A stretch of DNA of 60,000 nucleotides from Botryllus schlosseri. Lineage: Eukaryota. Below are positions 3,422-29,089 of this stretch, piece after piece. The first letter of the stretch is position 1; every line of letters begins with the position of its first letter. The notes beneath the pieces are model-generated. The model did not search any database, was not told the DNA's origin, and saw only the letters and a list, made by a program, of their open reading frames with translations. The stretch lies in the NCBI GenBank assembly GCA_051294905.1, contig CM119371.1, forward strand, positions 35,652,001-35,712,000, in the 5' to 3' direction. The position numbers and the translations under genes are program-made.

Positions 3422-4869
3422 TAAAACGTTTTATTTACTACATCTTAGGATAAATTTCTTGCAGTGAACTCCTTCCTAAAATGAAATTGGAATCCTTCAT
3501 CCGTGTTCAAATCTGAAATCTATCAAATATATCAGATTTAAGCTTCTGGTTTGATAGGGATACTGTAGGTAGCCTATACCCACTTTGTTGACTCGGGGAA
3601 AATTATCCATTTACAAGTCAAAAGAAATGAGACCCATATAAGTATTGTAGTTAAGCTTTTAAACGACAAATTTTATAGCTTTATACTCCTCTTTAATCTT
3701 GGTATAATGACCAATTGATACAGAAGAATATGAATTGCCGTTGTGCAAAATTACAATTTTTAATCTTTACAAACTGCTTTTTTGACAAAGAAATATTCCG
3801 TACCAGGTCATGTTATTATTGATAGAATGACTGAGAACAACATGAGGGTTCTTCATTGTCAATTATCTATTAATGCGCAGTATAAAATTAGAAAGAAAAA
3901 AACACGATTTTCTTTCTATCAAGTGAAATATTCCGGGGTAAATAATACAGTAATTTTGGGCTTTTAAGGGGTATAAATGTCTTATGAACAAGAGCCAATC
4001 AGGCAAGACTGATGTGATATTCGTAATCAGCAACCTCGAAAACCCCAGAAACGGCTCTCAGATGTTCTGCTAAAACCGTTTTTTTCACTTTGTTGACCAG
4101 TGTGATAGAACAATTGATTTGTGACTCGAAACCTCGTAACTTGCTTACAACTCTGCTACTTAACTAAAGTGGTTTTGCTTTTTCACTGTACTTGCACCTC
4201 TACTTGACAGTTTTTTAGGCATATATTCTTTTTTTGTATGCTTTGGATTTTGAAAGGTGAACTGTTTGGGGACATGTTTGTGTCACTTTCATTAGTGGAA
4301 TAGTCATTACATCTGTGTTACTTTTCGCGTTGACGGCGCTGTAGCCTTGTCAGCATTGATGAAGGCTCAAGCTTATTTACAGGCACATGGTATTAATCCG
4401 AATAGAATTAGTGATCCTATAACATGCACTATTGCGCATGCGCACATATATAGGTCTATATATATGGAGCTTACCTCTGAGATACGCAAGTTTATGCCTC
4501 ACGAATTTGTATTGATCTTCAGTGGATGATTGGTCGCGTGATTCAAGTCTGTAGTCACCTATAGAAATAGTCGGTATGTGATTGCTATTTACGGCCGATT
4601 GATCGGAACTAGTCATTTGGTTCCGAGCCTGGGTCTTCGAAGTCTTGCATCTGGTATGCAAAGCGGAACCAATTGTATTGACAACTTACAGCGCATCGCA
4701 CGTCTGTCCGGCGGCTCTTCCGTTGAATCATCGTTGCGAAGTTTCCTATATCTTCTCATACCTCCGTTCATTTATCGGATGACGTTACATATACAGGTAT
4801 ACACCCATTTCTTGACAGAAAGTTAAAACATTAGAATGCTTCACAAGGTATTGAACCATTCCCATAGAC

Positions 4870-9000: not shown

Positions 9001-9312
9001 ACAGTAATGGTAGGTCGAGTTTATCAATTGGTGAGAGAAATAGTTTACAACAAACTATATATATTCTGTCACAAAATCTCCCCGTAAGGCGATACCGTTT
9101 GCGGGTACAAAGGTGCGAGCCGCTTCGACTTGTTGTCCTTTTGAAAGCACGGAGCAATTTCGGACCTTGGTTCGAATATACAAATTGCTCTGATCAGACG
9201 TTTCGCCTAGGGTTGCTATTTCAGGCAAAACTTTCCTCGGATAATGTGATTTGCGTGGAAAATAACATCACTGTTTTGTGTTTTTTTTCAATAGAAACAC
9301 TTTCCCAGCAGG

Positions 9313-9376
9313 ATGAAGGTCTTGAGGTTGTCTGTAATAGTCATCTTTTTGATCGTCATCATCGTTCAAGATTCAG
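9313..9376 (+). CDS. Gene 1 coding exon 1: signal peptide
   Basis: MKVLRLSVIVIFLIVIIVQDS+G, donor GTACGT. Homologous to 17694-17751. Confidence 0.85.
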
Positions 9377-12300
9377 GTACGTTGACCTAGAGACTTATAG
9401 AAATGCATAGGCATAACTTGCGCTCCCGACCAGAAACGAGCACCACTGAATCGAGCTGACCCTCTTGCTCAGTTTTGTTGTGATCACGGGTGATAGCCTT
9501 TCCCGTAGTAAAGAGCAGGCGTGGGCAAAATAGATTACCTGTCTGTTTCGCCGCCAAGCATATCCAAATTTTCGCGTACCACCGACTCGCTGAGTTAGAT
9601 TGTGTACTCTTTACGCGAGCGCAAGGACAATAATGTAAGTTACACTTAGAGAAATATATATTTCTTTATTGCTACCCGGAACTATGACGTACAGCTATAC
9701 TATGTGAAAATGCTCTGGCGTGATCGCTACACTAAATGTCGTGCCTGCGCGAATATACGTGGCGCGAATATACGTGTTAACTTTGGGGTTATAAAGTTGC
9801 ATGCTTAACCGCCATTTCCCATTTCCCCGCATACTTAAATATAGGACAACATCCAAAACGTTGCCAATATCTTCCTAAAATTATGTCCAGCAATACTCAA
9901 TTTAGAGTTCTGGTAGAGTATATTATACTTGATGCCGCACTTTTTACGCACGTTTGTAACTGCAACTACATTACAATGACAACCCGATCGCGATAGTGTG
10001 CGATCCACAATTTTACCAATTCTGCGGGTGTTGCATAAGTTTGCGCAAGTGTATGTCTAGCTATTTCGCTACAATTTCAATAATTGAACGAGAGACCAGT
10101 GTTTTACCGGAGCTACAATAGTAGATCCAAAAATATAGCCTAATTAGTGCACTTCAAGCCAAGTCTCGGCTACTCTGCTAAAACCTAAGGGCGAGTGTTT
10201 CAAACAGAAATCATGTCGCCAAGGAAACCTAATAGCACGACCCGACAGAAATAATTACTTGCCAATAACCCCGTCCACTTTGCGATTATCAAAATGATTC
10301 TTCGTAGCTACATTGAACACGAGACGCGTTGTCTGGCTTTTGTTACAATGCCACTTGCAGACTCTGAAGCGAATCCATCCTTATGCTGACTTCAGACCTG
10401 CTTAAAAGATTAGCACGGACCTCATAACCGATCAGCCCTGTTGTTGTGGTATCTGGTGGTTAGAACATGGTTTCAGATAACAGTAATGCTATCAAATTTT
10501 CTTCGTCACAGAATCTACCAGGAGGGGAAGTTCAGCAAATGATGGACATGAAGTAAGCTATTCGTATTTCTCTCTCTCTATTTATAAACATTTGCAATGA
10601 TATTGTGATCCAAACTGTTTAGTTTTCAAGTTTGGATTCCTTAGCAATCAGAAGTGGTGAAAGCAGTCAGCACTTCTCTTGAAGTCGAAGTAGGAGGGAT
10701 ACCGTGAATTTTACTCATTGTAAAGTAGAAGTAACAATATCCAAGACACGCGACAAAACTACTTCAAGTGGAAGTCGAAAATGATGGGCACGAAAAGTAT
10801 TCACAGATGGTCTTTCCGAAAGTAGATTGGGTCGAGACGTCACGTTCTTTCAGTAGCCAATCACAGGAGGGTACTATCGAAATTGTAGGTTGCATCCCAA
10901 CGACTGAAGCGCAAGGACCAACGGCACCGCAAATATAGCAACACTTTACGAATATATATTCGTTTACTGTGATACATGTTTACTTAGCAGGTTGTTGATA
11001 GTTTCTCTCGTAAAAGTGGTGCAAACTTTTCCTTATACCAATTTATATCTTACAAAGTCAATGGCATTAAAAGTAATTGGGTGTGCCTTCATCTCTCCAC
11101 AAATGACAAATTAAAGAAAAATTGTTAACTATACTTGTGCAAGTTGGCAAAATCACTTGAGCGCTCCAGGAAAGTTTTTCGAAACTGACAACCTATGTCA
11201 GCAACTTTACTCACCGAAACTTATGTGCATATGCTGAAACCTCTGTATCACGAAATAGGGAAAGAGGCCGAAAGGGTTTTCCGGAAAAGGTTCTTCGAAA
11301 CTGTCTGGCATCCTAGAGTACCTGAAGAAAATTCGCAATAAGTTTGGACAGCATCGAGGTAAGTATTTAAACGTACCTTGGCACATAACGGTGCGAAGTT
11401 CTCGTGCGTTGTTGTTGTTGTTGTTTACGTACACGAGGCCGATATTCTGTTTATTATGATTCCGTATCTGTCGACTTGTAGCACGACCCACTTCTCGTGT
11501 GTACTGCTACAGTTTCAATGTAATTAGTCTATGAAGGTATAGCAGTTGTATCATGACAGTAGAGAAGACTTATGATAAGTCTAGCGGACAGTGTAAAATG
11601 AAGGTTGAAATGCAATTTTAAAATTCAGATAAGAAAACTGGCACTGGACCAGGGTGGAAGAGACGTCCATGGTGGAATAGATGGAACAGACCTACTGGTT
11701 ATCCCTGGTATCGAGTATGTGTCAATATCTGTCTTCCTGTGGAAATCATGAAGAGTCACATGATTGATAATAGCCTGAATATAAGAGGCCTATATATAGT
11801 AAACATGTAAGCATACGACACTTGAACACGTAGGGTGGAGTAAGGAATAGGGTTATAGTTTTACCGCTACCACCATGGGCTACTACATGTTCATATGTTG
11901 TGATCAATGTAGTCAGCGTTTGTACTCAACTAGACGTACAGATGTAAAGAGCTATATTACTACTGAATTATAAGTGAAAGTTGGGATTTACGAGACGTGT
12001 AAAAACAACTTGAATTGGAAGTAGAATATAGAATATCTGAAACTAAGAGAGTACAAAATGGAAGTAACAAAGTAAGCATATTCGCATATTGTGTATGTTA
12101 ATCGCCTACGTTCGGAATTGTCAGAAACCTCTTCCGACTAACAATAAATGACTAATGATGCTATAAATAGGTACAATGTTGTAAATATATTTTCAGAGGT
12201 TACTGTGGTGGTTATTTCACGAGGTTCTTATGAAGATATCACACATAAAGGGGATGTAAACTTTTCCCAATACTACTCTTACTATTCAAAATTAAAAAGG

Positions 12301-14694
12301 TGAAAGTAAGTAGTTTCGTCTAAAAACTGTTCAAGTAGAAGTGGTGGTGGTCTCAAAACATAACCACTTAAGTATCTAGTTGATGTCGGTAAAACTTACA
12401 CGAGTAATTCGAAAAAGTACTGACCACCTCTGACTATATAACATACAGATCAGATACCATCACCACGCTATCATTTTGCAGCCTACCCCGCCCCCGTTCA
12501 GTGACTGGTACATCGCTCCCAATGGATGCTCCTACAAGTACTTTCCCGAGCCCTTGAATTTTGTAGCATCTCGGATGAGATGCAAGATAGATAGGCCCGG
12601 GGCGGATCTGGCTGCGCTCGGAGTGCGTCAAGGCGTTGGAAATTATCTGGAGTGAGTTTTTCTTATTTTAATTAGGAATGCCGGCATAAGTACTATTGCT
12701 AGCAATACTCCCAGTTTATTCACAATATATTTGATGAAATTTCACCCAAGGTGGCTTCCTAGATATATCCAATCATTTAGAATAGAAAGATCTTCTAGGT
12801 GGTATAGCACTTCAATATACAATTGAATAGTATATTCATACTGAAATGGACCCGAATATTTTCGGCCGAAAATCGACGATTACACATGACGAGTATCAGC
12901 GGAAAATATTCGGGTTCATTTCAATATAAATATACTATTCAATGGCATATTAAAATAGAAACTGCGTGATCACACAGTGATTTGAAGCTCGAGTGAACTA
13001 GTATGATATTCTTGAAAATATCTAGGATTACAGGATGCTAAAGCAAACCTAATACCAGGGATCATCGAATCAGTGAACGTTGATAACACAGCTGTAACCA
13101 AGTCACAATGATCCGAGTCCCAACTCCGACGGACATACAGAAGTTTATTTCCAAATGCAAGAAAGTATTGCGGTGAATTGATGGCCTGGCATACGACTAT
13201 CCGGTCAATTTCACTTAGATAGTTTCGACTCGAGTCAAGTCGAGTCATTTTCAATTCATCGCCTTGTCAAATCCGAGTCCAGGTCAAAGAATGGATAGCT
13301 GATTTCGAGTCATAGTGTTAAGACTCGATTCATAGTGTTAAGACTCGTGTCCGAGCCCAATTCAGTGTGGTTATTGTTCAGTTTCCAGCTCACGTAATGT
13401 TCCACCCACTTTACTACAACTCTGGTTGGATTATATCGAATCACTCGCGTTCATAATACGGTAAATCTCCTCCTTGTTAACCGTTTCTAGCCCTAATTTT
13501 CATGCGCAAGTACTGTTACAAGAAATACCAATAATGTGGAACCTAACTATTCTTTGAAGTTATGCCTGTCTTATGGCCGTCCCCGTCTCGATTCATGCGC
13601 AATGACTCGAATACAAGTCGAGTCGAGTCAATATCAGCATTTTGGAAATTGACTCGAGTCAAATGGAGTCACCGAAAATAGCGACTAGAGTCGGACTCGA
13701 GACAAGTCATAACTCGAAACATTACAGTCCTGGTTGATACTCAAGATGAAATAAAAGCAACACCGTAAATTTTTTAGTACATGCTGAAGTAGCGATTTAT
13801 AATATACGTCGCTACTGCTTTAATCGGAAGAAGTAAATGAGAAGTCTGAAAGTACTCAAGTATGCAGTTTCAAAGTAGCAAGATAAATTTCGTCAAGCTG
13901 GTGTGGTATTCATGGTGTTTGTCAACCACTATGGTTATTTAAACCAACCAATTTTCTTCATTTATGTTCCGTAAATTCCTACTTGTAGCACGGCCCACTT
14001 CTAGGCTTTTATAAGACACCGCTAACACGGCTGAGATCCGTCGCATACTTTTAATCTGGGGCGGCTACTTTCAAAAGTGCAAGATCTGTGTTCGCGGCTA
14101 ACGAAGAATAACTACTCACACTACAAATAGGTTACATTTTCAAAACAGCATTCAGTAACCTCGATACCGGGGCTATTTCACGCGGTTCTTACGGTTATGT
14201 GACTCGTAAAGTTATTCAAACCTATCACATAACTGCTGCTTTCCACTTTTTAAAAAGCAGTAAGCTGGTCCAGTAAAAGTGGAAGTGATCAATGGAAGTA
14301 GGCTAAAACTACTTGAGTATTCCTAAAGTATAAAAGTAATTAGCTAATGTCCACTTCTGATATCAAGGAACAGGTATACAAGATGTAACCCATTTCTGAA
14401 GATAAAAAAACATTGCGCCGCAGTTAGTAAAATAAGAACGTATTTTCATCATTTCTCATAAATATCTTCAGAGATATAAAAGCGAACACGCAAGCTGCTG
14501 CGAACACGTTTTGGGTTGGACTCGGAGACGAGAACAATGACAGCTTGATGGAATGGACAGACGGCGTAAATCCGGCGATTGCCTTTACTCCTGTGCCAGG
14601 AGTCTGCTCCGTAACCGGCCCAGCAGGGTTGTTTCTGTATTCATGCAAAGATAGATTATTTCCGCGACTTTGCAGCGTTTGTGGTAGCTCGTGA
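9313..14694 (+). CDS. Gene 1 (spliced, 6 coding exons, 227 aa): secreted protein with cationic Trp/Arg-rich N-terminal region and C-terminal C-type lectin-like domain
   Basis: Exons 9313-9376, 10512-10552, 11259-11358, 11629-11714, 12482-12651, 14472-14694. All introns are GT-AG and the 684-nt frame is open. Protein: MKVLRLSVIVIFLIVIIVQDSESTRRGSSANDGHEGKRPKGFSGKGSSKLSGILEYLKKIRNKFGQHRDKKTGTGPGWKRRPWWNRWNRPTGYPWYRPTPPPFSDWYIAPNGCSYKYFPEPLNFVASRMRCKIDRPGADLAALGVRQGVGNYLEDIKANTQAAANTFWVGLGDENNDSLMEWTDGVNPAIAFTPVPGVCSVTGPAGLFLYSCKDRLFPRLCSVCGSS. Exon structure matches gene 2. Confidence 0.88.
10512..10552 (+). CDS. Gene 1 coding exon 2 (41 nt)
   Basis: CAG acceptor, GTAAGC donor, ESTRRGSSANDGHE. 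Same length and phase as 18595-18635. Confidence 0.85.
11259..11358 (+). CDS. Gene 1 coding exon 3: cationic amphipathic helix
   Basis: TAG acceptor, GTAAGT donor, GKRPKGFSGKGSSKLSGILEYLKKIRNKFGQHR. Shares YxxKIRxKF with gene 2 exon 3. Confidence 0.85.
11629..11714 (+). CDS. Gene 1 coding exon 4: Trp/Arg/Pro-rich segment
   Basis: TTCAG acceptor, GTATGT donor, DKKTGTGPGWKRRPWWNRWNRPTGYPWYR. Phases (1,0) match gene 2 exon 4. Confidence 0.8.
12482..12651 (+). CDS. Gene 1 coding exon 5: C-type lectin domain, N-terminal half
   Basis: TTTTGCAG acceptor, GTGAGT donor, W...GCSYKYF...C...GADLA. 170 nt, same as 25291-25460. Confidence 0.92.
12822..12943. repeat. Short hairpin MITE in gene 1 intron 5
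   Basis: About 40-bp inverted arms ATTGAATAGTATATT...CCCGAATATTTT / AAAATATTCGGG...ATATACTATTCAAT. Related fragments near 17325-17362 and 53145-53175. Confidence 0.65.
13087..13732. mobile_element. GACTCGAGTC-repeat hAT-like MITE
   Basis: Inverted copy of the 18685-19147 family. Flanks GTTGATAA / GTTGATAC (7/8 TSD). Confidence 0.7.
14472..14694 (+). CDS. Gene 1 coding exon 6: C-type lectin domain, C-terminal half
   Basis: CTTCAG acceptor, FWVGL-D...WTDG...C...C...LC, TGA at 14692-14694. Confidence 0.92.
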
Positions 14695-14713
14695 TTTTCT
14701 TTTTTCTTCAAGA

Positions 14714-14719
14714 AATAAA
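14714..14719 (+). terminator. Polyadenylation signal of gene 1
   Basis: AATAAA 20 nt after the stop. The context AATAAATCGC is shared with gene 2. Confidence 0.7.
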
Positions 14720-17693
14720 TCGCGCATTGTAGACGTCTATCGCGTTTAGTGCTGAACGCGTCACAGTGAATGTAACGATCTATAAATGAGACGACGAAGA
14801 AAATGGTGAATAAAACACCGAAAACAGGTTTATGGTTAGGTAGCGTGATTATTCGTCACACGTATAATGGAGAATTTCTTAGTAATCTTAACATATACCA
14901 TAAAAAACAACTTTGTATTTCATCATGATATCATTCGCTGCATCACTGTGGTAATGTTGGTACAGAAATTCAACACAGAACTCAGAGGAACATCGCAACG
15001 TAGCAGAACTATATATCCCAAGGTATTGGGGTTGTAAATAATGGATTTATACGCTTCTGTTACTGAAAAGTGACTGGCCTACAGGCCTAAATTATCGTAA
15101 AGTGACAAAGTTATCTATATATGGATGAGATCGCAAACTGCATAAATTTTTGTCTATGGTGTAAAATAGTTTCTGGATTCTAGATTCCACTGATTCTTTG
15201 GCAATACTTGATCCAAATGAGGGGTCCTTACGGGCACAAAGTGACTTCAAATCTACGAGAATTTTACTGACGAGTCGTTACAAAATCATGTGCTTAGACA
15301 TTTCGTAAAACTCAGATAATTTTGAGCGACATCTTACAAATTGCATCAACAGTGTTGTGATTATGATACTAATATAAATCGACAAGAGTGCCGTGGGCCA
15401 CAAGACAAAAGCACGCTCCAATGCAACTCACATTCAGGTAACATTTCAAAGTCAAACAATTAAATCTGTATATTTACTAATTCCTATAAGTCAGACCAAA
15501 AATATTAGAACTCAATCAAAATAACCATACATCTCGACATGGTCGTGCATTTGTACAAATGCTATATATAAGCAGGCACAAGTGACATCTACATTCTGGA
15601 TTAAGACACTGTGACGCAGTCATATTCTCAAACGCCACTATCAAGGATTTCGATAACTGCTTGCCCCTTCAAATATCGCGTATATTTACCGTGTGTTTCA
15701 GACTTCAGTGTGACATTCAGTAACGTCATATGCTCATCGTCACGCTGTTGTTCACAGACAACCTTTGATAACAGTTTGCACCATTCCTAATATCCAGTTT
15801 TCACGGTAATTAATCCGGCACTTATACCTAATCTTATTTACGCGATTTTCGATTCGTCACCGGCAGGCACTCATTACGTATTTTGCGACGAAAACATTTA
15901 TATAATGCCATTAATTATTCAGCAACCGTGAATCTGAACTCTATGTGCCTACATGATCAAACTCTAAAGCGGCAGAATTAACTCCCGGTGTTCTGCCACA
16001 TAGGTATAAATCAATGCCTGCAGGTACGAACATTGACGAAAATTGGGGATAGATTGTGTAATGTCAGGTCGAGGCAAGAAATTGGCCCCCATTGCTTTCG
16101 GGTCGCGTGTAATTGCCGGAAGACTATATATCGTATCGACAAAAGCCAGATACCGTATCTTTACGGCTACGCTACGCCAGGGCAGAGTAAGAATATTTTT
16201 TGCGAACATCCCATGAAAGGCAGAAGATCTACATTCGCGAGGCGTTCAGGTCAGGGTTATGTTATGTTTAGGTTTGCAGAGATTACAATATGCTATTTCG
16301 TGACCTCCTATATCTGCTATGTCAAAGGATTTGGAAATCACCAAAACTAAATGGCACACACGATTTCAAATTGGTATTGCTTTACTGGCAAATAATTTTT
16401 CCCTGCGGGATGTCATTTGGCCTGTGGGGCTCAGATCGCCAGGACAGGAACATTCGGCGCCGGTCATTTAGCCGCCTATGGACAATTAAACATATATGTA
16501 TGTTGTATATATCCAAGTTTTCGGTCAGAACATTCCTTCTCGGTGAAGCTCTTCTCGCTACTGATCGTTCTGGCACACTTCTCGGAGTCGCATGTTTCAT
16601 GGCCTATAACTTCATATGTATTGGTGCGTCGACGCGCAGTAATGGCCGACGCCGAAGTCTCCATTTCTATAAAATCTACGTATTTTCGTGAGGGAAGGGT
16701 AACCAATGATTAAGATATTTGACAATATTGAATTGCGCCATCAGCGCGAAAATATTTTGAAAAAGTGGCATAAATGTCCAAAAAAAATACTCTATAATTT
16801 ATGTTAATTATCGAAATAATTTTGGGCCCGTTCGAGCTTGCCCCCATCCCAATTGGGGGATTTGGGGTGCGGCAATTACGGCCCTGTTCCCCACTACCCA
16901 ACACTTTTTTCATTACAAAGCAGATATTTGCTGATTTGACTACACAAGACACCCAACCACACCAGTACGCAAGACAATCGCCTATAATTGCAACATAAAA
17001 GGCATTGTGAACCGATACCAGCAACGGTCAAAATTTCGCGAAAGCGTAATTTCACGTCAAACCAGTCGTGCGGGATGCGTTTGTGACGCCATCATTGGCC
17101 ATCCAGAGTTAAAAAATGAGGTTTTGTGAACAACACGCAATACAATTTTCGATACATACATTCCAGAGCAGGTAACTGGTAACGGTAATTGCGCATGTTT
17201 CTCCGTGAATATGTAGACTGCCCTGCATATAATTTTGAAGAAATGGGTCTATTTCCTACCAGAAATCATTGAATTCCCCACCAGTGGGGAATTCCGCACC
17301 ATTTGGGAACAACTGGTCTAAAACATTCGGGCTCGTTTCAATATGAATTTCAATATTCAATTGTTTAGGGTTGTACTTCCATTTTATGTCATAGTTGTTT
17401 CCTCTTTGCAATTCGGTGTCTGGCACTAGAATGAATCTTCCATCGCCATCCGCCTATGAAATTTGTATCCGGGCCTGAATATCGTTGTTTATTTGAGCCT
17501 CCCTAGTACAGAGTGGTAGAACAGAAACCTAAATTCACACACTCCCGCGATATATATCCATAATAATCAGTTTATTGCGTTCGTTTTCACCCATTCTAGC
17601 AAAATGTTGGAGTCGATGAGGATGTTTACGAAATTGGAGCTCTACACTATGTCGTATATCGTTTAATCACATGATTTCCATTTACAGTGTAGG

Positions 17694-17751
17694 ATGAAGA
17701 TCTTGTGGCTCTCTGTAATCATTACCTTGCTCATCGCCGTTCAGCAATCGG
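17694..17751 (+). CDS. Gene 2 coding exon 1: signal peptide
   Basis: MKILWLSVIITLLIAVQQS+G, donor GTAAGT. Confidence 0.88.
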
Positions 17752-20700
17752 GTAAGTGTGGAGTGACACAGCGCCCTGTGATTGCGCACACGCAGGATCT
17801 TATCTATTCGCATTCCTATGTATCGTGAAAGTAAAATTGAGACAAGTATTTTAATTCGATTTGTATGATCTTGATTTTACAACTCCTCAAAGATTAAGAT
17901 TATAGTAATATTGCGTTTGCTCAATCATGTAGAAAACGCAGTGTTTCGAAATCGAATTCAAAGATTTTCATATCGTTGGTAATGGCGCAAGTTGTTTAAT
18001 ATATGCAATATAGCGCAACCCCTAGTCATGTGAAGGAAGAAGTAGAATTCGTTACCTCCTATATTATATTTTGGAAACTTCGATTTCAACTGTGTTCGTT
18101 GCTATAAAAAATCCGTGGTGTTGTAGCACTGTTCAAAAGATTTAAGCCCCCATTTCCAACGAGCTCTTCAGATCTTTACCGCGTGAAAAAATTACCCCGA
18201 ACATTTATGGTCATGTCTTGGCTATATCCTTCCTATACGGCTACCACACGCGTCGTTCAAGTAGGCTACGGTAAAGCTGCTTAAACTAGCCATTCCAAAA
18301 GGTTAGCTACATCTGCAATTCCAATAACTCGCGGAAACTGTGAGAATTCACTGACTAGTTATCCAGATCTATATATAAGCTACAGTTTATCCGGATCGGG
18401 AAAGCTGCACGTGCGCTGGGCCCATGTTTAACTGCGAAAACCGCAGGTGATCGAAGAAGAACATCTGAACTGAACACACAAACTTGGCACGGGGCCTACG
18501 CTAAGTTATAAGTTATCGTAGGCCCCGCTTGGCATTACTTGGAAATAGGGCATTTCACGGGAGTTCTAATGTGTTATCATATCTGTTTCTATAGAGTCTA
18601 CCAAAAGCTCAGACGAACTGAAGAAAGGATGGGAAGTAAGATTTGGTTTGGCCTATTTTCTCATATAACTTACTGTATGCCAATCAGGGTTGTATTGACT
18701 CGAGTCATGACTCGACTCGACTCGACTCAAGTCAATTAGTGCGTTGACTCGATTTGGACTCGAGTCATTTCTCATGACTCGAACTAAGTCATATGACTCG
18801 AGACTCAGACGGCCAAGACCGACATTTCATTGTAATTTCGAAAAATAGTAAAGTAACCACACTATTGGAATTTCGTTTATCGGTACTGGTACTTGAAGAA
18901 GCGACCAGAAGCTTCTAAAACTGAGGAAAATCAGTATATTATAAATCAAAACCATTCAAACAATACTTTAGCTGGAAACTGTACAGTCAAAAAAATGACT
19001 TGGACTCGGACTCGAGTCATAATACCATGACTTGGACTCGGACTTGACTCGGCGGTGAATTGTAAATGACTTGACTTGAGTCGAGTCAAAAACTATAAAA
19101 GTGAGATTGACTTGTGACTCGGAGTCTTGTGAGTGGTTACAACTCTGATGCCAATAACGCATGGAATCATTGTTGATCGCCAATGTCCAAGTCGGATTTA
19201 TTGTATAATCAAAATACTCTTCTGTAAGGTATGAACTGTATAACCTACGAATATAAACAAATGTTTCATATATAGGATACGATTTCCAAATGGCTCTCTC
19301 AAGGGAAGTCGTGCACACTTGCAGAGATGAGCGCTTACCAAGAGAAAATCCGAGGAAAGTTCAAACTTTTAGGTGAGTGTGTAGTTTTTGTTGGAATATA
19401 GTTATGGCATAGGCTACTCAGGGACCATAATAGAGAACATTGACCTGGCGTTATATGACACTTGACACCGCAACATCATGAATACCGAACAAAAACAACG
19501 CGACAGGAACAGCAACAATAACAATAACAATAACAACAACTACGACAACTAGTAATAACAACGAGACTGTTCAGCATTTTGTGGTGAGTGTTGGAAATAT
19601 ATTGAAGCAGCATAGTAAACATTGCCACGCAGGGAATGCTAATGGAATGCAATGAAATAATGAATGAAATAATGAATGAATGAATAAATGAGTTAATTAA
19701 TTAATGACTTAATAAATGAAAGAATGCATGAATTATTGAATGAACGTAGTCCGCAAGTGACGCAAACTCATAAAAATGAATTTCTACTTTGCGAAATCAA
19801 AAGTGTAAAAAGCAGCAGTCTTTCTGTAAAATACTGCTCAAGCAAAAATGGAAGTACTTTAAAAAAGAAGTAGCCTACTTGATTAAGTAGTGATGCAACC
19901 AGACAAAACCTGATTGAATACTGCGAAAAAAAGTACTTCGTTACATACCACCCCCTCATGCCGCATCTCTAATAGAGGGCTCTGTAATATCTGGCGAAAA
20001 TTCGCGAAATATAAAAATCCTAAGCTTCTGATTCGTCGCATTTGTTCGAAATGATATTTTACACGTGGCGAATTTTGAGAGTCAAGTGTCTTCGTTGAAA
20101 CTTTGCGTATAAGCAATGAGATTTAATTGGCATTTTCAAAATACAGGTATAAAATCGGGAAAGGTGTCCTTCAGAAAACTCTGGGCAGAGTTACTGGCAC
20201 GGTATCCACGACTACGAGGGATTTTCCACTACCGGGTATGAGCTAATATCGTTTTTCGTAGAAATTCCATGATGTGATGTTATATATAATATGGGATGAT
20301 GCTTATCCATGAAAGATTCAGATTCATTTGCTAATGCGACCTGGAACTCGAACTGGACTCAAGGACGTTACGTCGAATTGGTTTCTTTACGACTGCGAGA
20401 CCCTGCGATCATTTCTACTCAAACAGAAGTAGAAGTGACGCCGTAATTTGCATGTAGAAGTAGCATTAAATAGCACAAGACTTCAAGTGGGAGTATAAAT
20501 TAAGGTCGCAAAGGCACTCAATTCAGTACTTTTAAAAACCAGATTTGTGGTTTAGCGTTGGTACTCAATTACGTGCAGAAGTATCAATTTAAAAGACATG
20601 TCAAGTAGAAAATAAAGACCTGAAAAAGACAATGTGAATAGACTCAAAATATATATTTGATCGTAGGTTCTCATACTGTTAGCAGTTGTTTGGAGGCGTA

Positions 20701-23700
20701 AAATTTCGAAATGGCTTATTGCATTTTCGTGACTGACTGATGATACTACAAACATGTATGAATTAGACATACGCTCATAATAAGTGTGATGGAAACATAC
20801 CCAAAGTACGTGTAGAATAATAATGTTCAGTAAAACAGTCAAGTTGACGTGAAGGTATAGTCAACACATAACCACTAGAGCAGTAGTTCTCAATCTGAGG
20901 GGAGGTGCGAGGCCGCCTGAGAGAAATGAAGTTTCTGGAACTCGGAATGAGTGTGATTTGTAATGAAACTTCCAAGTTTCAACAACGGCCATAATCCTAA
21001 TTATGTTACGATCATAATGCATGGCTGCGTGATAGTGGACGTTACACCGAACAGAAAAAGTCTCTGAATAAGGAGTAAATGGTGAATTCGTGTGGGTGTT
21101 AAATGATGCTTTTACGAACTGTTTGTCAAGCATCTGTACAGAGTGCGTAGAAAGACACAAAGTTATGGAGAAAATATCTATATCCTATACCTATACGTTC
21201 ATGTCATATGCCATGTACAATATGACTTTTGGATCTACGAAACAGGGATTTAATTCGAGGTGGCTAAAAACGTCGAAGGATAGCCACTCAGAGTACTCAA
21301 TTAGGACACATTTTGTGTAATGCCACTGTCAAAAAAGCATTTTATGGCGGCCCAAAAGTATTCAATTGAATCATTCCCTTGCCTATTATCTCCGAAGATT
21401 CACCTGACGCTCTTAATTATTGCTCTGTTTATAGTTTAGAGGTTTGTTTAACAACATAATAACCATCCGCTCCCTCAAACTATGCGTTGGGATTGCAAAC
21501 TTTCCGGTCGCTCTTTTTAATATTTTAATAGTATGACGATAAGGAAGGTACGTAAATTGTCACTATCATCAAGGTGGCGTGTCTGAAAACGTTCGTGAAC
21601 CGCTGCACTAGTAACTAGAGTATCACGTGCAAATAGGCCAAACGTAGCCTACTTGAGTGCTCCAAGAAAGTAGAAGTACATCTTTACTGACTCTCCAAGT
21701 GAACAATACCTTGTATACGCTGTTGTTGTAGTTGTTCTTACTTGTTATTGGTGCTCAGCGTCAAATAGTTATTTCTACCAGACCTAGATGAGTATTATGC
21801 ATAGTTTTATATGATATATCGAGAGCTGTGAGTAAGAGATATTACATCAAAGGAACGACGGTATAAGGATTGATTAGATTACATTGTGATGCAAACATAA
21901 ACTAAATACAAATACTTATAGAATACAAAACCCGACGTCTCAAAAGTAGGTAGTTTTGCCTGGTAAACTGATAAGTGAAACTAAACTGAGAACATCGCCA
22001 CACTCACAGCAATAAAATAAGACTATTTGGGAACTCCTCTTGAAAAAGGACACATTGTAAAGGCTAACTTTATCGTTAATAAACATTTCTGTAAATAATA
22101 TCCTTCATAAGTTGCAATACGATATACAGTTAAAACAAAATCAGATGAATTGAAGTGAAAGCAGTTCAACATATAACCTCCAGATTAGAGTAGGGTTATC
22201 ATTAGGGCAAGTTTTTGCAACTTTTGCAACCTTTTTCACAGCTTCCGGCAGCTTCCTAAATACTCGGAGTTATGTAAAATGCTGTTTTAAGCTGTTTGAA
22301 GGAATCTTATTGTGTAAATTTCTGCAACTTTTGTCCATTTTTTATGTAACTTTTTGCAACCTTTTCGATTTTTCGTGCAGCCAACTTTTACTGGAAATAT
22401 TTGGCAATATATGTAAATAGATCGCTTGATTATGTCACTGTTTTTTGAGAATTTTGGTGAAATATACGGCCAAATTCGACTGAAATACCATGAATCAGCA
22501 CTGAAGTAACGCTCTAACGTATTCCGGGAGCTGAGCCGAAAAGTTGACCTTTTTTTCTAGTCAACCAATGAAGAATGTGGATGGAAAACTGTATTTCGGG
22601 AGTGAAACTGGGAAGTTGACCTTTTTTTAGTCAACCGACCAAAATGCGGTCTTTTAGTGCAACTTTTGTGAAAAAATAAATGCAACTTGCGACGGATTTA
22701 ACTGCAACCAAAACTTGCCCTGGTTATCACACGTCCATGTCGTGGCCAATGTTCTCTCTAAGCTGCGCACGTGCGCAAATGCGCAGTGCTGAAACGATCT
22801 CTGCGCACAGAAAATCTATGCTGCGCACAAAAAATCTGAAGTGATGATTTTTTATTACTCGAAGCGCACTGTTCTACAAAGGACCGGGCAAGCGCGCATA
22901 CTCGTGAAAAATTAGAGGGGACACAGCCAGGGGCAAATAGTGTTATCGCTGAAGTCTGAAACCGAGGTACAAGTGCGGCCCGTAAAGGCAAATATTGCGC
23001 TCTGCGAAGAAATGAAAATTGGCAATGACGGGCGCCTCACGAAAGAAATTTTTCTTCTAGTATATGGTCTCGTACGCGTGAGCGATACTGATATCATTTC
23101 AATAGCCCAATCTATCCTGAGTTTGGCGAAATAAGATGGTTACATGGTCTAAGTTATAAATAACAATGGGTTAGCTCGAAATTAGTCTGCGAGAAACTTA
23201 CGAATAATATTTTCCGCGTGGCATGAACATTGCATAAGATTTTCTGTACAATTCCATGCCGTGAATTTTCGAAGTCATCACTTACATCATGCAAATCTGA
23301 TCAAGTATGGTGGGACAGGATAATATGCAGAATATGCAAGTACAAGCACCAATATTGTTGAAAAAATCCATCCCCTTGCAAGCGTTGATCGGGAAATGCT
23401 TCAACAGCGCACTGTGGGGCGTTGAATTAGGCCTACATCAGCTTCTCAGCAGCACAAATTTTGATTTTATTCGATTCGTTTGAACGGGAATCTTCTCTCG
23501 ATAAGGTCATACGCTAATATTATTCTTGCTTCAGTCAGACTTGAATATTCGTATCATTTTGTCCTGATAGTAATGAGTGCATTGCCGGTATTAAGACGTC
23601 ACATCAGTGTTTAAACGCGGTAGGCCTATATCGATCGCATGTATTGATTTAAAGGGCGTCCTCGTGCGTGTACGTACCAGAGGTGGTCAAAGTAGTTACC

Positions 23701-26700
23701 GTCGCTACTTGAATAGAAGTAGAAGTAACGCCGGAATTTCTACTCTAGTAGAAGTAGGAGAGGCGGTTCGCAAGTAAGTAAGTAGGTAGGCTATTCCACG
23801 CCTATTTTTGCCTATTAAACTGAAAACTGTCAAGTAGAAATAGAGGTAGTATATAATTAAAACTACTTAATTGGTAGTGCGAGTAGGCAAAATCTAAATA
23901 CTTCAAAAAGTAGAAGTACTTCGTTACTGACCACCTCTGGTACGTACGTCTACTAGTAATCTATATGTCACATGCTCACAGATTTATTGTGACGTCACAG
24001 AGGGTCACACAAAATTACGATTTGGCGTCTATAGTACTTGCGGTTACAAGCGTCCATTTGTGTCACTTCATGTGTTTGGCTAGCAGCTTACCTGTTGGCC
24101 AGCTGGCCAACGTTGAAAGAATACTCGCTACTTCTGCTTGTCACTGTTTATACTGATCGCTTCTAATGAAGGCAAAACCAATGGGCAGCCTATTTTCTGA
24201 AGCTCATACCCTCACCAAGCCAAATTATTAAAGTGCGATCAGTTTAACATGGAATGGTCGTCGGAGCATGTGAAAACGGAAGACAAAACTAGGTACGCCC
24301 GAAAACGTTCAATTATTATTTAGGGGTCCTACCTTTTCCAACGCACCTGACTCGGTCAGCTCAACCAGTAAATTTGATTACGTGAGCAGATAGAGCATAA
24401 AAATTGATAGCACTATACCGATTCTATCATGAATTATAAAAAAGTCTCGCGCTGCGCGCGATCAGGCCGCACACCCACTAAACGGAAACCAATCTAGATG
24501 ATTAGCATCGGCAAAAAAGCGTCTAGCCAAAGGGGGGTCTGGGCAGAAGCTTGATTTATCACCCTATGGGGGCCTGGTTGCGCAGTGCTGTCCAACGGCC
24601 TGCGCAGTGAGTTGGCGTGTTTGCGCAGACTCGTGAAAAATTAGAGGGAACATTGGTCGTGGCTATAGTTATATTATGCGTCAGCGGTCGTCCAACCCGA
24701 ATCTACTATCGTAGGGTTACCATATGTCCTTCTGTAGGAGGATTTGTCCCCATTTCTAACGAAATTGAAAATGTCATCCCAGGACGTCTAAATGTCCTTC
24801 TCTTTGACATTTCGTCCCCCATTACAGCTTTTGCAGCTAGGATAATGGAGAGAGTCAAATGAAAATCGGCATAAACGAAGTGAAATAGGGGATACGGACG
24901 TTCGAGCGGATCATTCGTGAGTCGAACGAACGTGATGACTTTATTTGTTTAGTCAACACCACCAAATTAACGCAAGTGGGTAAATCGGCGGTAAAGTCAA
25001 GATGGTGACCTTTTGTAGTCAACACAACAAGCTTTCCAGTAAATATTACTCAATCAGCTGTTTACAAATTCAGTCATCTAGCTTTCATAACCTGGTAGAA
25101 ATGTGTTCCTTTCCCGCTTCCAGTATATGGTAACCCTAAACTATAGAGAAAGTGGTGCAAGTAGACAAATGTACTTGAGTATTCCGGGGTAGTAGGCTAC
25201 TTCGTTACTGTCCACATCTTTTCCTAATACCTTGTACACGTTGCACTTCGTTGTATAATCAGTTCCTGATACGGTACTATTACATTATAGTCTAGGGTAC
25301 GGCCGTTCAGTGACTGGTACGATTCTCTGAACGGATGTTCCTACAAGTACTTCCCGGAGCCGTTGAACTATGCAGCTGCGCGTCAGAAATGCAAAAAGGA
25401 GAGGCGCGGCGCAGATCTGGCAGCGCGAGGAGTTCGCGAAGGAGACGGAAATATTCTCGCGTAAGATTTTCGGTGTCTTGTACAAAGTCAATGGTGGACG
25501 ATCGAGCAGACATGTGGCTTACAGAGGTGGTCGGTAATGGATTAATTTGACTTTGTTTAGATTACTCAAGTCGGATTTATGTACTCGTACTATTTACTCA
25601 AGCGGTTATGCTTTAAAACCGACTTGCTTTTCACACGTTGGATCGTGTAAAGTAAAATATGTTTGTAGTACTTTTTATTGGTGAAATTGTCAGGGAAACT
25701 ATGTGAAATAGCCCTTGTATCACTGTTATTGAATATATTTTCGAACATCGCACCTGTTTACCGTGTCACTCATTACCCATTTTAAAGACGAAAGTAGCCA
25801 TCTTGGATTTACTTCTACTTTTTGAATTTGTTCACGTGAGTACTTCTCGGACGGCCAAGAGTGACATTTCATTGTAATTTCGAAGAATAGTAAAGGTACT
25901 AAACTACTGGTATTTCGTGTATTAGTACTGGTACTTGATATGCGACCAAAAACTGTTAGAAGTGAGGAAAATTAGTATACTATGGATTTGAAGCATAGGA
26001 TATAAACGAGCAGAGTTTTGAAAAGTGAGTTTAACAAGACTTTATCTTGAAACTGGACAGTCAACACAATTACTTGAACTCGGACTGGAGTCATACCTAA
26101 GGTTGAATTTAAAACAAATGTTTGTTTAAAAAACCTTGTTTAAAACCTGTTTTAAAGAATGTTTAAAAGAAAAGTCATTTGAAAAAAAGTCCCTTTTTTC
26201 AAGTTATGCTATAATTGTGTAAATACTTTACAAAAGACATGTTGTATAAGCCTACGAATGATTACCCCCCCCCCTGATATAGTCGATGTATACGATATGG
26301 GACGGTTGGAACACTCGAAATAGTCGGTTCAACAGCTATAGTACGAAGATATTTTATCAAAGGAGCTATATTAACCCTATATTTTCAAGTGCCAATACCA
26401 ATCCACTATGACGTTACAATTGAATATTACTGAAGTCATGTTTTTAAAAATAAAAAAAAAGAATAAAAAAACATGTTTTAAACAATGGTACTTGTTTTAA
26501 AAATGTTTGTTTTAAATTGATTTTTGTTTTAAATGCAACCCTAGTCGTAAGACAATAACTCGGACTCGAGCATCTGCTGGCGGACTTGGACTCGAACTTG
26601 ACTCGGTGGTGAAATGAAAATGACTCGACTTGACTCGAGTCAAAACTATAACAGCGAGATTGACTTGGGACTGGGATCCTTGTGACTTGTATGGTTACAA

Positions 26701-28633
26701 CCCTGTCTCATACCCTTGTTTTCTATTGTCAGTTGAAATGGTTTTTCACATGTCTTCGATATCGCTACTTCAACTGGTAATTCAGTAGAATATTCGGGGT
26801 TACGTCTAGTTCTACTTGATTACCAAATCTGACTGCTGTGACCACCTTTGCTTGACGCTAAAACATTTAAGATTCTCGGTTCCCGAAGGCTAATTAGTAT
26901 ACAGTCGTTCCGAGAGGTATAAGTGCTGAAGGGATTTCAGAACTTCCAAAAGTAAATTGGCCCCACATTCAATTGTATTGAATCACCAATCTCATCTATT
27001 ATCAAGTACATAGCTTAGACCAGTGGTTCTCAACCTTTTTGTCTTCGCGGACCCCTTTGGACCGTCACGGACCCTCGCGGACCCCCTCCAGTTTTAGTTC
27101 AAATTTGGCTCAATTATGGTGCAACCGTCATCTGTCTTGTGCAAATATGGACTGTATATAGGCTTGTGTTGAACAGCAAAAAATGACCTTTCTTGAAAAT
27201 AACACCGTATACTATTTATGTAGAAATTTGAGAGACTTTTATTATGTCAAAGCTAATTTTGCAGCTGTTTGTCCTGAAGTTCGTGGTCGTGTCTTGAAAA
27301 TCCGCATATTAGATTTGATATGAATGAGTGCCGAAACTACATTTCCACACATACAGATGGAGGGTAATGTAATATTATCGAATGTAAACATAGAATGGCA
27401 ACGACCTATTTTGCGGCGTCATTCCGCTTCGCTGTGGCTGGATCCAGAATTGTATTGCGTAAGCGACTTTAGGATTTCCGTCAATCCAAAAGTTATCTTT
27501 CAGAGCGCAGAATTTACTGAATCTGGTCTTGATCGAAAGCTACTGTTGACATTCGATAGTAATATCAACGCGTAACGCTTCCAACGGCACTTTTGGTGTG
27601 CTCGCAACATTTATGGCACCAAAATGAAGAAACGCATTTTTAATGAACTTATCACATTCATTTTTATCTAGCGTTTCATCCGGAAGTTATTCCGGAATAG
27701 TGGTTATTTACACAGGATGAAATGAATTTCGTGACGACGTTTCAATCCCTTCCTTCATTGGGACAAAATAGCGAAAATACTTTCGGAATTTTTATTTGAA
27801 ACGACTGGTAAGTGGTCACTAATTTGATGAGACTGACAACTTCAACGCGAAAAGGTTTCGCCAACATTTCGAAGTCACCCTGATTGACCTTACTATCTCC
27901 ATGTTTTTATTTTTTCTACAAACCCCCAAAAAACGTTTCTAAACGGCAATGTGTTTGTATCAGTAGGTTATTGGCATTTTGGCAATCAAAATGAATTTGC
28001 ACAGTAGGATATTACATGTCAGACGATTATTCCGATGATGTGAGTCATGAGGTTTTAGTAGTTGTGGAGCGAAACTGCCTCATGTTTTCCCACATTAAAA
28101 AAGTACATATCAAGTTTTCAATCACATTGCAAATTTTGATGTCTCGCGGACCCCCTGAAATGGCTTCGCGGACCCCTAGGGGTCCGCGGACCCCCGGTTG
28201 AGAACCACTGGCTTAGACAGTCGGTACATGCAAGCACAACCTAACAAACCCATGGAATGTATACCCATTTGAATTGATATTCGACTCATCTTCACCGACT
28301 GCAATTAATATGAAAGCAAATTATCGTATCCCAAAGTGAACCTGACCTGCACACGGTTTGCCCCATGTGCTAACATGCCGTATTTCAATACTTTAAAAGC
28401 TATATATTCACAGCGACATAAAAGCGCGCACCAAAGCCGAAGAAAACACCTTTTGGATTGGACTCGGAGATGAGGACAACAACAATTCCCTGGAATGGAC
28501 AGACGGCGTGGATCCAGCGATTCCGTTTTCCCCGGTACCTGGAGTCTGTGCTGTGTACGGCCCAGCGGGATTGTTTTTGTACCCGTGCAAGGAGAGATCG
28601 TTTCCACAGCTCTGCAGCATCTGCAGGAGCTAA
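17694..28633 (+). CDS. Gene 2 (spliced, 6 coding exons, 224 aa): paralog of gene 1, secreted cationic-domain C-type lectin-like protein
   Basis: Exons 17694-17751, 18595-18635, 19276-19372, 20147-20235, 25291-25460, 28414-28633. All introns are GT-AG and the 675-nt frame is open. Protein: MKILWLSVIITLLIAVQQSESTKSSDELKKGWEDTISKWLSQGKSCTLAEMSAYQEKIRGKFKLLGIKSGKVSFRKLWAELLARYPRLRGIFHYRSRVRPFSDWYDSLNGCSYKYFPEPLNYAAARQKCKKERRGADLAARGVREGDGNILADIKARTKAEENTFWIGLGDEDNNNSLEWTDGVDPAIPFSPVPGVCAVYGPAGLFLYPCKERSFPQLCSICRS. Confidence 0.88.
18595..18635 (+). CDS. Gene 2 coding exon 2 (41 nt)
   Basis: TTTCTATAG acceptor, GTAAGA donor, ESTKSSDELKKGWE. Confidence 0.85.
18685..19147. mobile_element. GACTCGAGTC-repeat hAT-like MITE in gene 2 intron 2
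   Basis: TIR CAGGGTTGTA / TACAACTCTG, perfect 8-bp TSD ATGCCAAT, (GACTC)n subterminal arrays. Confidence 0.9.
19276..19372 (+). CDS. Gene 2 coding exon 3
   Basis: TATAG acceptor, GTGAGT donor, DTISKWLSQGKSCTLAEMSAYQEKIRGKFKLL. Confidence 0.83.
19510..19745. repeat. Degenerate (AAC/AAT)n and (AATG)n microsatellites
   Basis: AACAATAACAAT tract at 19510-19562 and AATGAATG tract at 19650-19745. Confidence 0.75.
20147..20235 (+). CDS. Gene 2 coding exon 4: cationic amphipathic segment
   Basis: TACAG acceptor, GTATGA donor, GIKSGKVSFRKLWAELLARYPRLRGIFHYR. Confidence 0.8.
20881..21605. mobile_element. Old hAT (Charlie-like) MITE in gene 2 intron 4
   Basis: Ends CAGTAGTTCTCAA / TCGTGAACCGCTG. Flanks CACTAGAG / CACTAGTA (6/8). 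Confidence 0.6.
22203..22722. mobile_element. TGCAAC-repeat hAT-like MITE
   Basis: TIR TAGGGCAAGTTTT / AAAACTTGCCCTG, TSD GTTATCAT / GTTATCAC. Same family as 46649-48139. Confidence 0.85.
22747..24655. mobile_element. TGCGCA-repeat hAT-like (Tip100-type) non-autonomous element
   Basis: TIR CAATGTTCTCTCTAA / TTAGAGGGAACATTG, perfect 8-bp TSD GTCGTGGC. Confidence 0.85.
23678..23939. mobile_element. Intact AGTAGA-repeat hAT-like MITE; reference copy of the most abundant family in the window
   Basis: TIR CAGAGGTGGTCA / TGACCACCTCTG, perfect 8-bp TSD GTACGTAC. Degenerate relatives near 8130-8380, 10650-10810, 11990-12432, 13740-14360, 19760-19955, 20410-20630, 25147-25220, 25522-26850, 43530-43937, 46473-48604 and 59040-59200. 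Confidence 0.9.
24712..25138. mobile_element. hAT (Blackjack-like) MITE
   Basis: TIR TAGGGTTACCATAT / ATATGGTAACCCTA, GTCC motifs, TSD 6/8. Inverted relative at 37418-37825. Confidence 0.8.
25291..25460 (+). CDS. Gene 2 coding exon 5: C-type lectin domain, N-terminal half
   Basis: TATAG acceptor, GTAAGA donor, 170 nt. 37/57 residues identical to gene 1 exon 5 by manual count. Confidence 0.92.
25522..26850. mobile_element. Three-level MITE nest in gene 2 intron 5
   Basis: Outer AGTAGA family (CAGAGGTGGTC...GACCACCTTTG). Middle GACTC family at about 25850-26705. Inner TTTAAAAC-repeat MITE at 26098-26543 (TAAGGTTGAATTTAAAAC / GTTTTAAATGCAACCCTA). Confidence 0.7.
27021..28210 (-). mobile_element. 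Non-autonomous hAT (Charlie/Buster-like) element
   Basis: TIR CAGTGGTTCTCAACC / GGTTGAGAACCACTG, perfect TSD GCTTAGAC, CGCGGACCCC motifs. The minus strand near 27300-27370 reads LPSICMCGNVVSALIHIKSNMR, a degraded hAT dimerisation motif. Confidence 0.9.
28414..28633 (+). CDS. Gene 2 coding exon 6: C-type lectin domain, C-terminal half
   Basis: CACAG acceptor, FWIGL-D...WTDG...C...C...LC, TAA at 28631-28633. 51/72 residues identical to gene 1 exon 6 by manual count. Confidence 0.92.
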
Positions 28634-28658
28634 TCGTGTTTTAATGCTGTACAAGTTG

Positions 28659-28664
28659 AATAAA
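28659..28664 (+). terminator. Polyadenylation signal of gene 2
   Basis: AATAAA about 25 nt after the stop, same AATAAATCGC context as gene 1. Confidence 0.7.
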
Positions 28665-29089
28665 TCGCACAGAGGACGTGTATTTCGTCAATTTTCGAAA
28701 CGTAAAACCGATATTTAGTTAACGACTGATAACTAAGAACACACGCGCACGTAGGGGGGGGGGGTGAGCCCACTGCAAATCCTGCACAGCCGAGACTAAA
28801 ACCACGGCATTTCGGGAAGATGGTCGTGACCAGACCAGCTGCTCTAGTTTCCCCATCCCCGTTCCGATTATTCTCTTCGATTATTCACCAGCTAAAGTGA
28901 TACAGGATTATCGGGTTTGGTATGCTTTCCCCTGTAAACCCGTGTCTTCTCCTGTGGTTGCATTATAATGATTTGTAACGGTGTGAAACTTCAAAAACAT
29001 GTTCCTTTCTTTCGGTAGTAAGAACGATAGATGTCGCCAGCTACATCAATGGCCACGTCGTTGTAGTGAATAGGCCTACATACTATACA

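Follow-up and report, generated by a model that had tools for sequence, protein, structure and literature searches.

Tandem Botryllus schlosseri genes with a predicted cationic arm before their C-type lectin-like domain

Background

Among proteins carrying C-type lectin-like domains (CTLDs), vertebrate CLEC3A is the nearest described parallel to the genes considered here: its signal peptide is followed by 16 residues that carry 8 positive charges, then by a helical oligomerisation domain and a CTLD, and its N-terminal peptides (HT-16 and HT-47) kill bacteria by membrane permeabilisation (PMC10604565). Tetranectin (CLEC3B), like CLEC3A a member of CTLD group IX, has no canonical Ca2+-dependent sugar binding (PMC13359685, PMC514892). 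Here, we describe two tandem paralogous genes of the ascidian Botryllus schlosseri whose predicted products carry a cationic arm ahead of a CTLD. They lie on the plus strand of a stretch of 60,000 nucleotides (nt), referred to as the window (GenBank assembly GCA_051294905.1, contig CM119371.1, positions 35,652,001 to 35,712,000), and all coordinates below count from its first letter.

RegIII and eosinophil major basic protein are directly microbicidal CTLDs. Cathelicidins, crustins, penaeidins, and BRICHOS peptides join a conserved folded domain to a variable cationic peptide on separate exons, and the combination of a conserved signal peptide with a hypervariable cationic core is common in antimicrobial peptide precursor families. 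RegIII belongs to CTLD group VII and eosinophil major basic protein to group XII (PMC514892). A preliminary description of the locus, made from the letters alone, had placed the known microbicidal activity of such proteins in the lectin domain itself; the bactericidal N-terminal peptides of CLEC3A contradict this (PMC10604565). In ascidians, conserved signal peptides are reported for the antimicrobial peptide precursors of Ciona, and some of the validated Ciona peptides are rich in Trp and Arg and low in helical moment (PMC7387483, Table 3 for the latter).

Gene Models and Expression

The gene pair is real, expressed, and apparently undescribed. Each gene has six coding exons, and the products are 227 amino acids (aa) long for gene 1 and 224 aa for gene 2. 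The spliced models bear out the matching six-exon structure of the preliminary description: all 10 introns are GT..AG, both reading frames are open, and the intron phases (1,0,1,0,2) are common to both genes. Exons 2 (41 nt) and 5 (170 nt) are identical in size, and the remaining four differ by 3–6 nt. The alignment score of every exon pair beats shuffled sequences (at most 3 of 1000 shuffles reach it), and for this reason we treat exons 3 and 4 as homologous between the paralogs, though they are only 31–33% identical. There is no third copy of the gene within the 60-kb window.

A pyrimidine tract followed by AG stands 18 nt before the ATG of gene 1 (9280..9294) and 6 nt before that of gene 2 (17675..17687). 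Since both ATGs are preceded by such an acceptor-like site, a 5' untranslated exon or a trans-splice site probably lies upstream of each. At the other end, the polyadenylation signal AATAAA starts 20 nt past the stop codon in gene 1 (14714..14719) and 26 nt past it in gene 2 (28659..28664).

Four sequencing runs (X1, X5, X9, and X3) were mapped to 9150–28800. X1 is presumed, not confirmed, to be RNA, and its depths are inflated by repeats; all depths are rough values from bin means, and X9 and X3 were examined in six bins. The joint between exons 3 and 4 of gene 2 (GT..AG, 774 nt) is present in one X1 contig and in eight X5 reads with six starts. A 367-nt X1 contig matches only 12481–12651 (gene 1 exon 5), with 104 and 92 further letters on its two sides that are unlike the flanking introns; because it extends both ways without flanking intron sequence, gene 1 exon 5 must be an internal spliced exon. 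X5 depth is ∼11, 14, and 16 for gene 2 exons 1, 4, and 5, and ∼2.5, 5, and 0 for gene 1 exons 1, 2, and 6, the latter figures reflecting a handful of reads.

Of the predicted junctions, the mapping thus supports the exon 3-4 joint of gene 2 and the splicing of gene 1 exon 5, and no exon 4-5 joint stands among the 15 of 181 joints listed, in an output dominated by repeats. The fusion of exons 1–4 to exons 5–6, although not directly seen in RNA, is likely because the phases match in both genes, depth is similar along gene 2, and exon 5 itself lacks a start and a signal.

Some details of the mapping may be recorded alongside. Over 14398–15053, X5 is without reads on gene 1 exon 6 despite a few on exons 1–2, and X1 covers exon 6. 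The X1 contig match includes one base (G, 12481) ahead of gene 1 exon 5, and this extra G could come from a synonymous allele in the last base of exon 4 or, alternatively, from exon 3 being joined to exon 5. Gene 2 exon 5 shows T>C at 25338 in 22 of 22 X5 reads (depth 22), a synonymous change that keeps the Cys; G>T at 25406, in one X1 contig, changes Arg to Leu. Introns and flanks also hold families of short inverted-repeat elements (e.g., 13204–13401, 18690–19140, 26538–26677, 27020–28215, and 46289–46439), which are abundant in the RNA runs and dominate read depth.

Signal Peptide and Lectin-Like Domain

Exon 1 of gene 1 (9313..9376) encodes a putative signal peptide with a basic n-region and a hydrophobic core: Kyte-Doolittle hydropathy in 11-residue windows peaks at 4.17 at residue 8, and nothing beyond residue 25 exceeds 1.6. 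Its counterpart in gene 2 (17694..17751) is 63% identical by alignment. Over 19 residues, hydropathy reaches 2.47 in gene 1 and 1.64 in gene 2. The 41-nt exons 2 (10512..10552 and 18595..18635) each encode a polar spacer of net charge −1, and the signal-peptidase site of gene 1 would likely fall near the start of this exon. A Ser-Glu-Ser motif kept in both genes fits such a site. From this layout, with a predicted signal peptide in both genes, we infer that both proteins are secreted, as had been proposed.

Both genes encode a CTLD split over two exons. In gene 1, exon 5 (12482..12651) provides a Pro-rich hinge and the N-terminal half, and exon 6 (14472..14694) the C-terminal half, with a shortened long loop, and the stop codon; in gene 2, the halves are exons 5 (25291..25460) and 6 (28414..28633), the latter with an acidic patch and the stop codon. 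Against a profile built from 14 CTLDs of four retrieved proteins, the two spliced products reach 35.4 and 30.2 bits, and the best of 1000 shuffles scores 7.8. Each half of the gene 2 CTLD, searched separately against PDB, finds CTLD proteins as its best matches (E 0.013 and 0.019, the second being that of exon 5), and in Atlas exon 6 falls among Lectin_C clusters (0.94), exon 5 scoring 0.90. The WIGL-type motif profile is matched, and the four core Cys, which in CTLDs make up two core disulfide pairs, are present. The CTLD of the preliminary description is therefore upheld by scores far above shuffles and by halves that match CTLD proteins by themselves. Pfam contributes less: Lectin_C matches both exons 6, but at single-exon scores below the cut-off (E 0.024 in gene 1 and 0.0019 in gene 2), and gives no match for either exon 5.

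The canonical Ca2+/sugar site is marked by EPN or QPD, located in the long loop, together with the WND of strand beta-4. Neither EPN/QPD nor WND is found in either paralog, and an EPN/QPD-like motif occurs in 13 of the 14 reference CTLDs. Between WxDG and the next Cys, the loop has 13 aa here, as against 21–25 in those 8 of the 14 references that allow the measurement. Judged by these motifs, the CTLD of both genes is without a canonical Ca2+-dependent carbohydrate site and is not a classical lectin. The proteins contain six (gene 1) and seven (gene 2) Cys, of which six are conserved, including an extra one near the C-terminus. In both CTLDs, the first Cys of the long form is missing and the extra Cys lies three residues past the last core Cys; a non-standard third disulfide is possible. 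Together, the shortened long loop and the conserved extra Cys pair define an unusual CTLD. Its net charge is −2 in gene 1 and 0 in gene 2, with a local acidic patch in exon 6 (−5 and −6 per 18 residues). Between the paralogs, its 129 codons show nonsynonymous divergence (dN) of 0.20 and synonymous divergence (dS) of 1.38: the domain is under purifying selection.

The Cationic Arm

The region between spacer and CTLD, encoded by exons 3 and 4, has a net charge of +16 in gene 1 and +10 in gene 2; recomputation returned the values first counted by hand. Charge and helical moment were compared with 1366 stop-free 30-mers from the non-exonic frames of the window (mean charge +1.7; counts converted from printed fractions). 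It is important to remember that this background is non-coding DNA and not a set of secreted proteins.

Exon 3 of gene 1 (11259..11358) encodes a Gly/Lys/Ser-rich stretch followed by a predicted cationic amphipathic helix. Its charge of +9 is reached by 4 of 1366 background 30-mers and its moment of 0.59 by 10 of 1366 and by 7 of 2000 shuffles; none of the 1366 reaches both together. As a single peptide, it is modelled by AlphaFold with a helix over residues 13–32. Exon 4 of gene 1 (11629..11714) is of another kind, a Trp/Arg/Pro-rich cationic segment without a significant helical moment; its charge of +7 is reached by 37/1366, and its five Trp by no background 30-mer (0/1366). In gene 2, exon 3 (19276..19372) is by alignment the homologue of gene 1 exon 3, has a net charge of +3 and one unpaired Cys, and is joined in RNA to exon 4 (20147..20235). 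The latter is predicted to form a cationic amphipathic helix-kink-helix (AlphaFold; the query carried four intron-derived residues), and only 3 of 1366 background 30-mers jointly reach its charge of +7 and moment of 0.52.

Peptide-like signals thus differ by exon: that of gene 1 exon 3 is strong, those of the two exons 4 are moderate, and gene 2 exon 3 has none; each paralog appears to have its own mix of peptide types. Amphipathic helices had been claimed for both arms. The claim stands for gene 1 exon 3; the two helices quoted come from different exons (gene 1 exon 3 and gene 2 exon 4), gene 2 exon 3 is ordinary, and gene 1 exon 4 has no significant moment. The charge of +7 in exon 4 is kept in both paralogs at 33% identity. 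In exon 3, they have in common the motif Y-x-x-K-I-R-x-K-F (40% identity over 25 aa, E 9e-4). A crude count gives no more than two to three consecutive heptads in the arm, within exon 3 and ∼30 residues before the CTLD. The helix screen used for Ciona (18-residue windows with hydrophobicity 0–0.6, moment 0.1–1.0, and charge +3 to +10; PMC7387483) is passed by 32 windows of gene 1 and 31 of gene 2, all of which start in exons 3–4.

Exon 3 against PDB returned two weak matches, judged to be chance; when the peptide of gene 2 exon 4 was modelled in complex with both halves of the CTLD, the score was 0.06, which is uninformative either way; and a search of the introns for extra cassette exons gave one weak, frame-shifting candidate only, at thresholds that also miss several true sites.

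The arm diverges faster than what surrounds it. Against a dN of 0.27 for the signal peptide and the low value of the CTLD, exons 2–4 reach 0.62–0.85, a divergence three to four times faster, and dS is saturated in exons 3–4. Dibasic and RxxR sites exist within the arm; in gene 1, KR at 37, RR at 80, and RxxR at 86 are each followed by Pro, a residue that convertases disfavour after the cleavage site.

Possible Functions

We tentatively favour, as quite possibly correct, the reading that the pair encodes secreted host-defence proteins with a membrane-active cationic arm; what is said here of action on membranes, of processing, of the CTLD's task, and of defence itself is deduced from the predicted proteins. 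After removal of the signal peptide, a short polar spacer would lead to the 60-residue arm, which would bind anionic microbial surfaces (lipopolysaccharide, teichoic acid, or anionic lipids), and its amphipathic helix or Trp/Arg-rich segment would insert into the membrane. The CTLD would be a conserved scaffold without classical Ca2+-dependent sugar binding, most likely stabilising, oligomerising, or docking the protein, and the arm would act either tethered or after clipping by extracellular proteases rather than prohormone convertases. In favour of this reading are a signal peptide and a CTLD that are conserved on either side of a hypervariable cationic core, the charge that exon 4 keeps despite low identity, and the charge, moment, and predicted helix of gene 1 exon 3. 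By eye, the five Trp of gene 1 exon 4 resemble the Trp/Arg-rich, low-moment peptides of Ciona. The CLEC3A precedent shows that peptides lytic to membranes can come from an N-terminus of this kind on a CTLD (PMC10604565).

Two earlier proposals need adjustment here. Of a recognition-plus-killing module, the killing half is in keeping with a cationic, fast-evolving arm containing peptide-like segments, but the recognition half assumes a working lectin, and the canonical Ca2+/sugar site is absent in both paralogs. The CTLD as a cathelin-like carrier finds no direct support: the domain is near neutral, its only acidic feature is the local patch, and there is no convertase-type boundary site.

Several results weigh against a defence role. 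Gene 2 exon 3 is ordinary, its +3 being reached by 498 of 1366 background 30-mers and its moment being not significant. The moment of gene 2 exon 4 is reached by 181 of 2000 of its own shuffles, which is also not significant, and the arm charge of +10 in gene 2 by 3718 of 100000 random pairs. The Ciona helix screen is a weak test, since 327 of the 1366 background 30-mers pass it as well. With exons 2–4 compared with the dS of the CTLD, dN is not above dS; positive selection is therefore not shown, and the divergence can be put down to relaxed constraint as readily as to an arms race. No clear convertase-type site was found at the arm/CTLD boundary in either gene, which, together with the Pro after these basic sites in gene 1, favours a tethered arm or cutting by other proteases; the available sections of PMC12968183 hold nothing on processing. 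X9 and X3 are nearly without reads, so that expression is seen in only two of four runs. Finally, by analogy with tetranectin, whose Lys-rich N-terminus binds heparin and whose helix trimerises, a layout of this kind may serve heparin binding and trimer formation (PMC13359685).

That analogy leads to the main alternative, possible if doubtful, namely matrix or granule proteins whose arm would bind sulfated glycans or other polyanions of the tunic, basement membrane, or granule matrix, with the exon 3 helix as an oligomerisation neck, the CTLD binding a protein partner, and any antimicrobial activity of excised peptides incidental. The exon 3 helix motif is the sole part of the arm conserved between the paralogs, and the unpaired Cys of gene 2 lies there. 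In addition, the crab C-type lectin Sp-LECin, without in vitro activity, gave an active synthetic fragment (PMC9820466), and peptide-likeness therefore proves little. However, two to three heptads are short for a coiled-coil neck, and a five-Trp segment in one paralog where the other has a kinked helix would fit membrane activity better than a shared structural role. A distinctly improbable alternative is that of ligands which are secreted, evolve fast, and serve recognition between cells (of gametes, at the egg coat, in the adhesion of larvae, or in allorecognition); their CTLD would bind protein, and their basic arm would bind or fuse membranes. Expression in two of four runs and the lack of a close homologue in single-exon searches would suit it, as would the Ciona CTLD CiCD94-1, which is without carbohydrate binding and is thought to recognise peptides (PMC5465252); yet positive selection is not shown and the conserved part is the CTLD, not the arm.

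The remaining two alternatives question the gene product itself. It is very improbable that the main product is a CTLD-less antimicrobial peptide precursor of 66–128 aa, made by early polyadenylation in intron 4 or by a frameshifting skip of exon 4, with the fusion as a minor form. Such products would be 75 or 128 aa long in gene 1 and 66 or 96 aa in gene 2, AATAAA occurs in both introns 4, X5 depth is roughly 2.5–5x on gene 1 exons 1–2 with none on exon 6, and the G before exon 5 in the X1 contig fits the last base of exon 3 and not exon 4 of the window. That G could equally be a synonymous allele, gene 2 having G there, and the gene 1 counts are few reads; moreover, gene 2 exons 1, 4, and 5 are alike in X5 depth (∼11, 14, and 16x), exon 5 has neither start nor signal, the phases match, and both CTLDs are under purifying selection. 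Least probable are type II membrane CTLD receptors of the CD94 kind, with an uncleaved N-terminal anchor and a basic stalk. The 19-residue hydropathy of gene 1 (2.47), the Ca-independent CTLD, and natural killer receptor CTLDs among the weak PDB matches are what one would expect of them, but the hydrophobic stretch begins in the first few residues and leaves no cytoplasmic tail, gene 2 reaches only 1.64, and the Ser-Glu-Ser motif in both genes fits a signal-peptidase site.

If the host-defence reading is carried further, the pair could represent a lineage-specific family of antimicrobial peptide precursors, a proposal that we hold to be unlikely. In ascidian precursors, the pro-piece is anionic; here a disarmed CTLD would stand in its stead, and exons 3 and 4 would evolve separately as peptide cassettes (helical and Trp/Arg/Pro-rich in gene 1, a kinked helix in gene 2). 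The outcome, a design like that of cathelicidins but built on a lectin scaffold, would have arisen independently of vertebrate CLEC3A, possibly with CTLD-less isoforms.

Homologue Searches and Neighbouring Sequence

Homologues were sought with single exons of 56–73 aa rather than with the spliced whole proteins, in databases with few ascidian data, and sensitivity is accordingly low. Among longer proteins, 0 of 33 candidates for gene 2 exon 6 and 0 of 259 for the exon 5 alignment were homologous; the exon 6 alignment gave no candidates among near-length proteins. A search of representatives returned 12 matches, of which 4 were multi-CTLD proteins and 8 unrelated (mostly repeat-rich), none being a close relative, and 0 of 71 and 0 of 185 pattern matches in metagenome contigs were homologous. 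No close relative is indexed in the databases searched, from which nothing follows about other ascidians. The available sections of PMC12212465 and PMC13635237 name no such gene. No invertebrate family with this layout was found in the open full-text literature; the supplementary tables of ascidian transcriptomes, outside that search, may name these genes.

Around the pair, no Pfam-recognisable gene was found in ∼40 kb (1–9200 and 28700–60000; frames of at least 50 aa, so that genes of small exons could be missed). Of 269 open frames of at least 50 aa outside the pair, three have Pfam matches with E <0.01, and all three fall under the cut-off. A link to the Botryllus FF/FcoR loci (PMC12582321) was considered and dropped, because these neighbouring matches all fell under the cut-off and were treated as chance. 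One of the neighbouring frames, of 95 aa at 50627–50911 on the minus strand, has a sub-cut-off Ig-like match (PF25305, E 0.0038) and no clear splice sites by eye; the match is probably chance among 269 frames. At 525–944, a short inverted element with 15–16 nt tandem units on both arms yields spurious repetitive open reading frames.

Significance and Comparison with Known Systems

If the arm is antimicrobial, these genes would belong to a class of host-defence peptides that present screens miss by design, because the Ciona screen kept only Cys-free precursors of 50–100 aa (PMC7387483) and the annotation of lectins passes over the N-terminus. The gain would be three new candidate peptides from a marine animal, with salt tolerance a plausible property, and also another instance of the CLEC3A layout among chordates, the second and apparently an independent one. 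With an arm that does no more than bind polyanions, the pair would be of modest interest, as an ordinary duplication of an orphan lectin-like gene.

The folded domain sets the pair apart from the two-part peptides, in which it is another domain, and cathelicidins and BRICHOS precursors carry the peptide at the C-terminus and free it at a defined site. RegIII and major basic protein resemble the pair as secreted single CTLDs without a classical Ca2+-dependent site, and differ in that the CTLD itself is the cationic killer, with an acidic or short pro-piece, whereas here the CTLD is near neutral and the N-terminal arm cationic. Major basic protein also shares with the pair a WIGxG-type glycine variant (noted in PMC514892).

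Ascidian peptide precursors (Ci-MAM-A and Ci-PAP-A among others, PMC7387483; styelins and botryllin, PMC9966394) are similar in that a conserved signal comes before a variable cationic segment, either amphipathic or rich in Trp and Arg, that an acidic stretch lies in the C-terminal part, and that basic processing motifs are few at the boundary. Those of the Ciona screen are 50–100 aa long, Cys-free, and end in an anionic helix (PMC7387483), and botryllin has 158 aa; the pair, with 227/224 aa, 6/7 Cys, and a folded six-Cys CTLD instead of an anionic helix, lies outside the Ciona limits. The charge limits of the anionic pro-region are reached by 12/18 windows, all inside the CTLD (residues 156–174 onward) and not in a free helix. 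Identity with botryllin was rejected on motif and length, and the pair is not placed in the styelin/botryllin family: neither protein contains the KHK motif of the mature peptide, and the lengths differ from the 158 aa of botryllin (PMC9966394).

Group IX remains the closest comparison. The order of signal, cationic stretch, helix, and single CTLD is alike, and a cationic region follows the predicted signal peptide in both genes (+16 and +10). Group IX genes have three exons with the CTLD on one of them (PMC10604565), the pair six with the CTLD split by a phase-2 intron; the coiled-coil neck of group IX directly precedes the CTLD, and the pair has two to three heptads (crude count) ∼30 residues ahead of it. 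The arm, ∼60 aa, hypervariable, and with a Trp/Arg/Pro-rich segment, is also unlike group IX, and no group IX chain is among the PDB matches listed for the gene 2 CTLD halves. We do not file the pair in group IX, because the gene structure differs and there is no clear neck. The preliminary description had not recognised the layout as a named family; this holds in that no invertebrate family was found in the literature searched and the pair falls outside group IX, and not in that CLEC3A is a precedent for the layout. The pair may work like CLEC3A. By this comparison, it appears to be a known design, the CLEC3A-like layout, in variant form, for which a role in defence is plausible.

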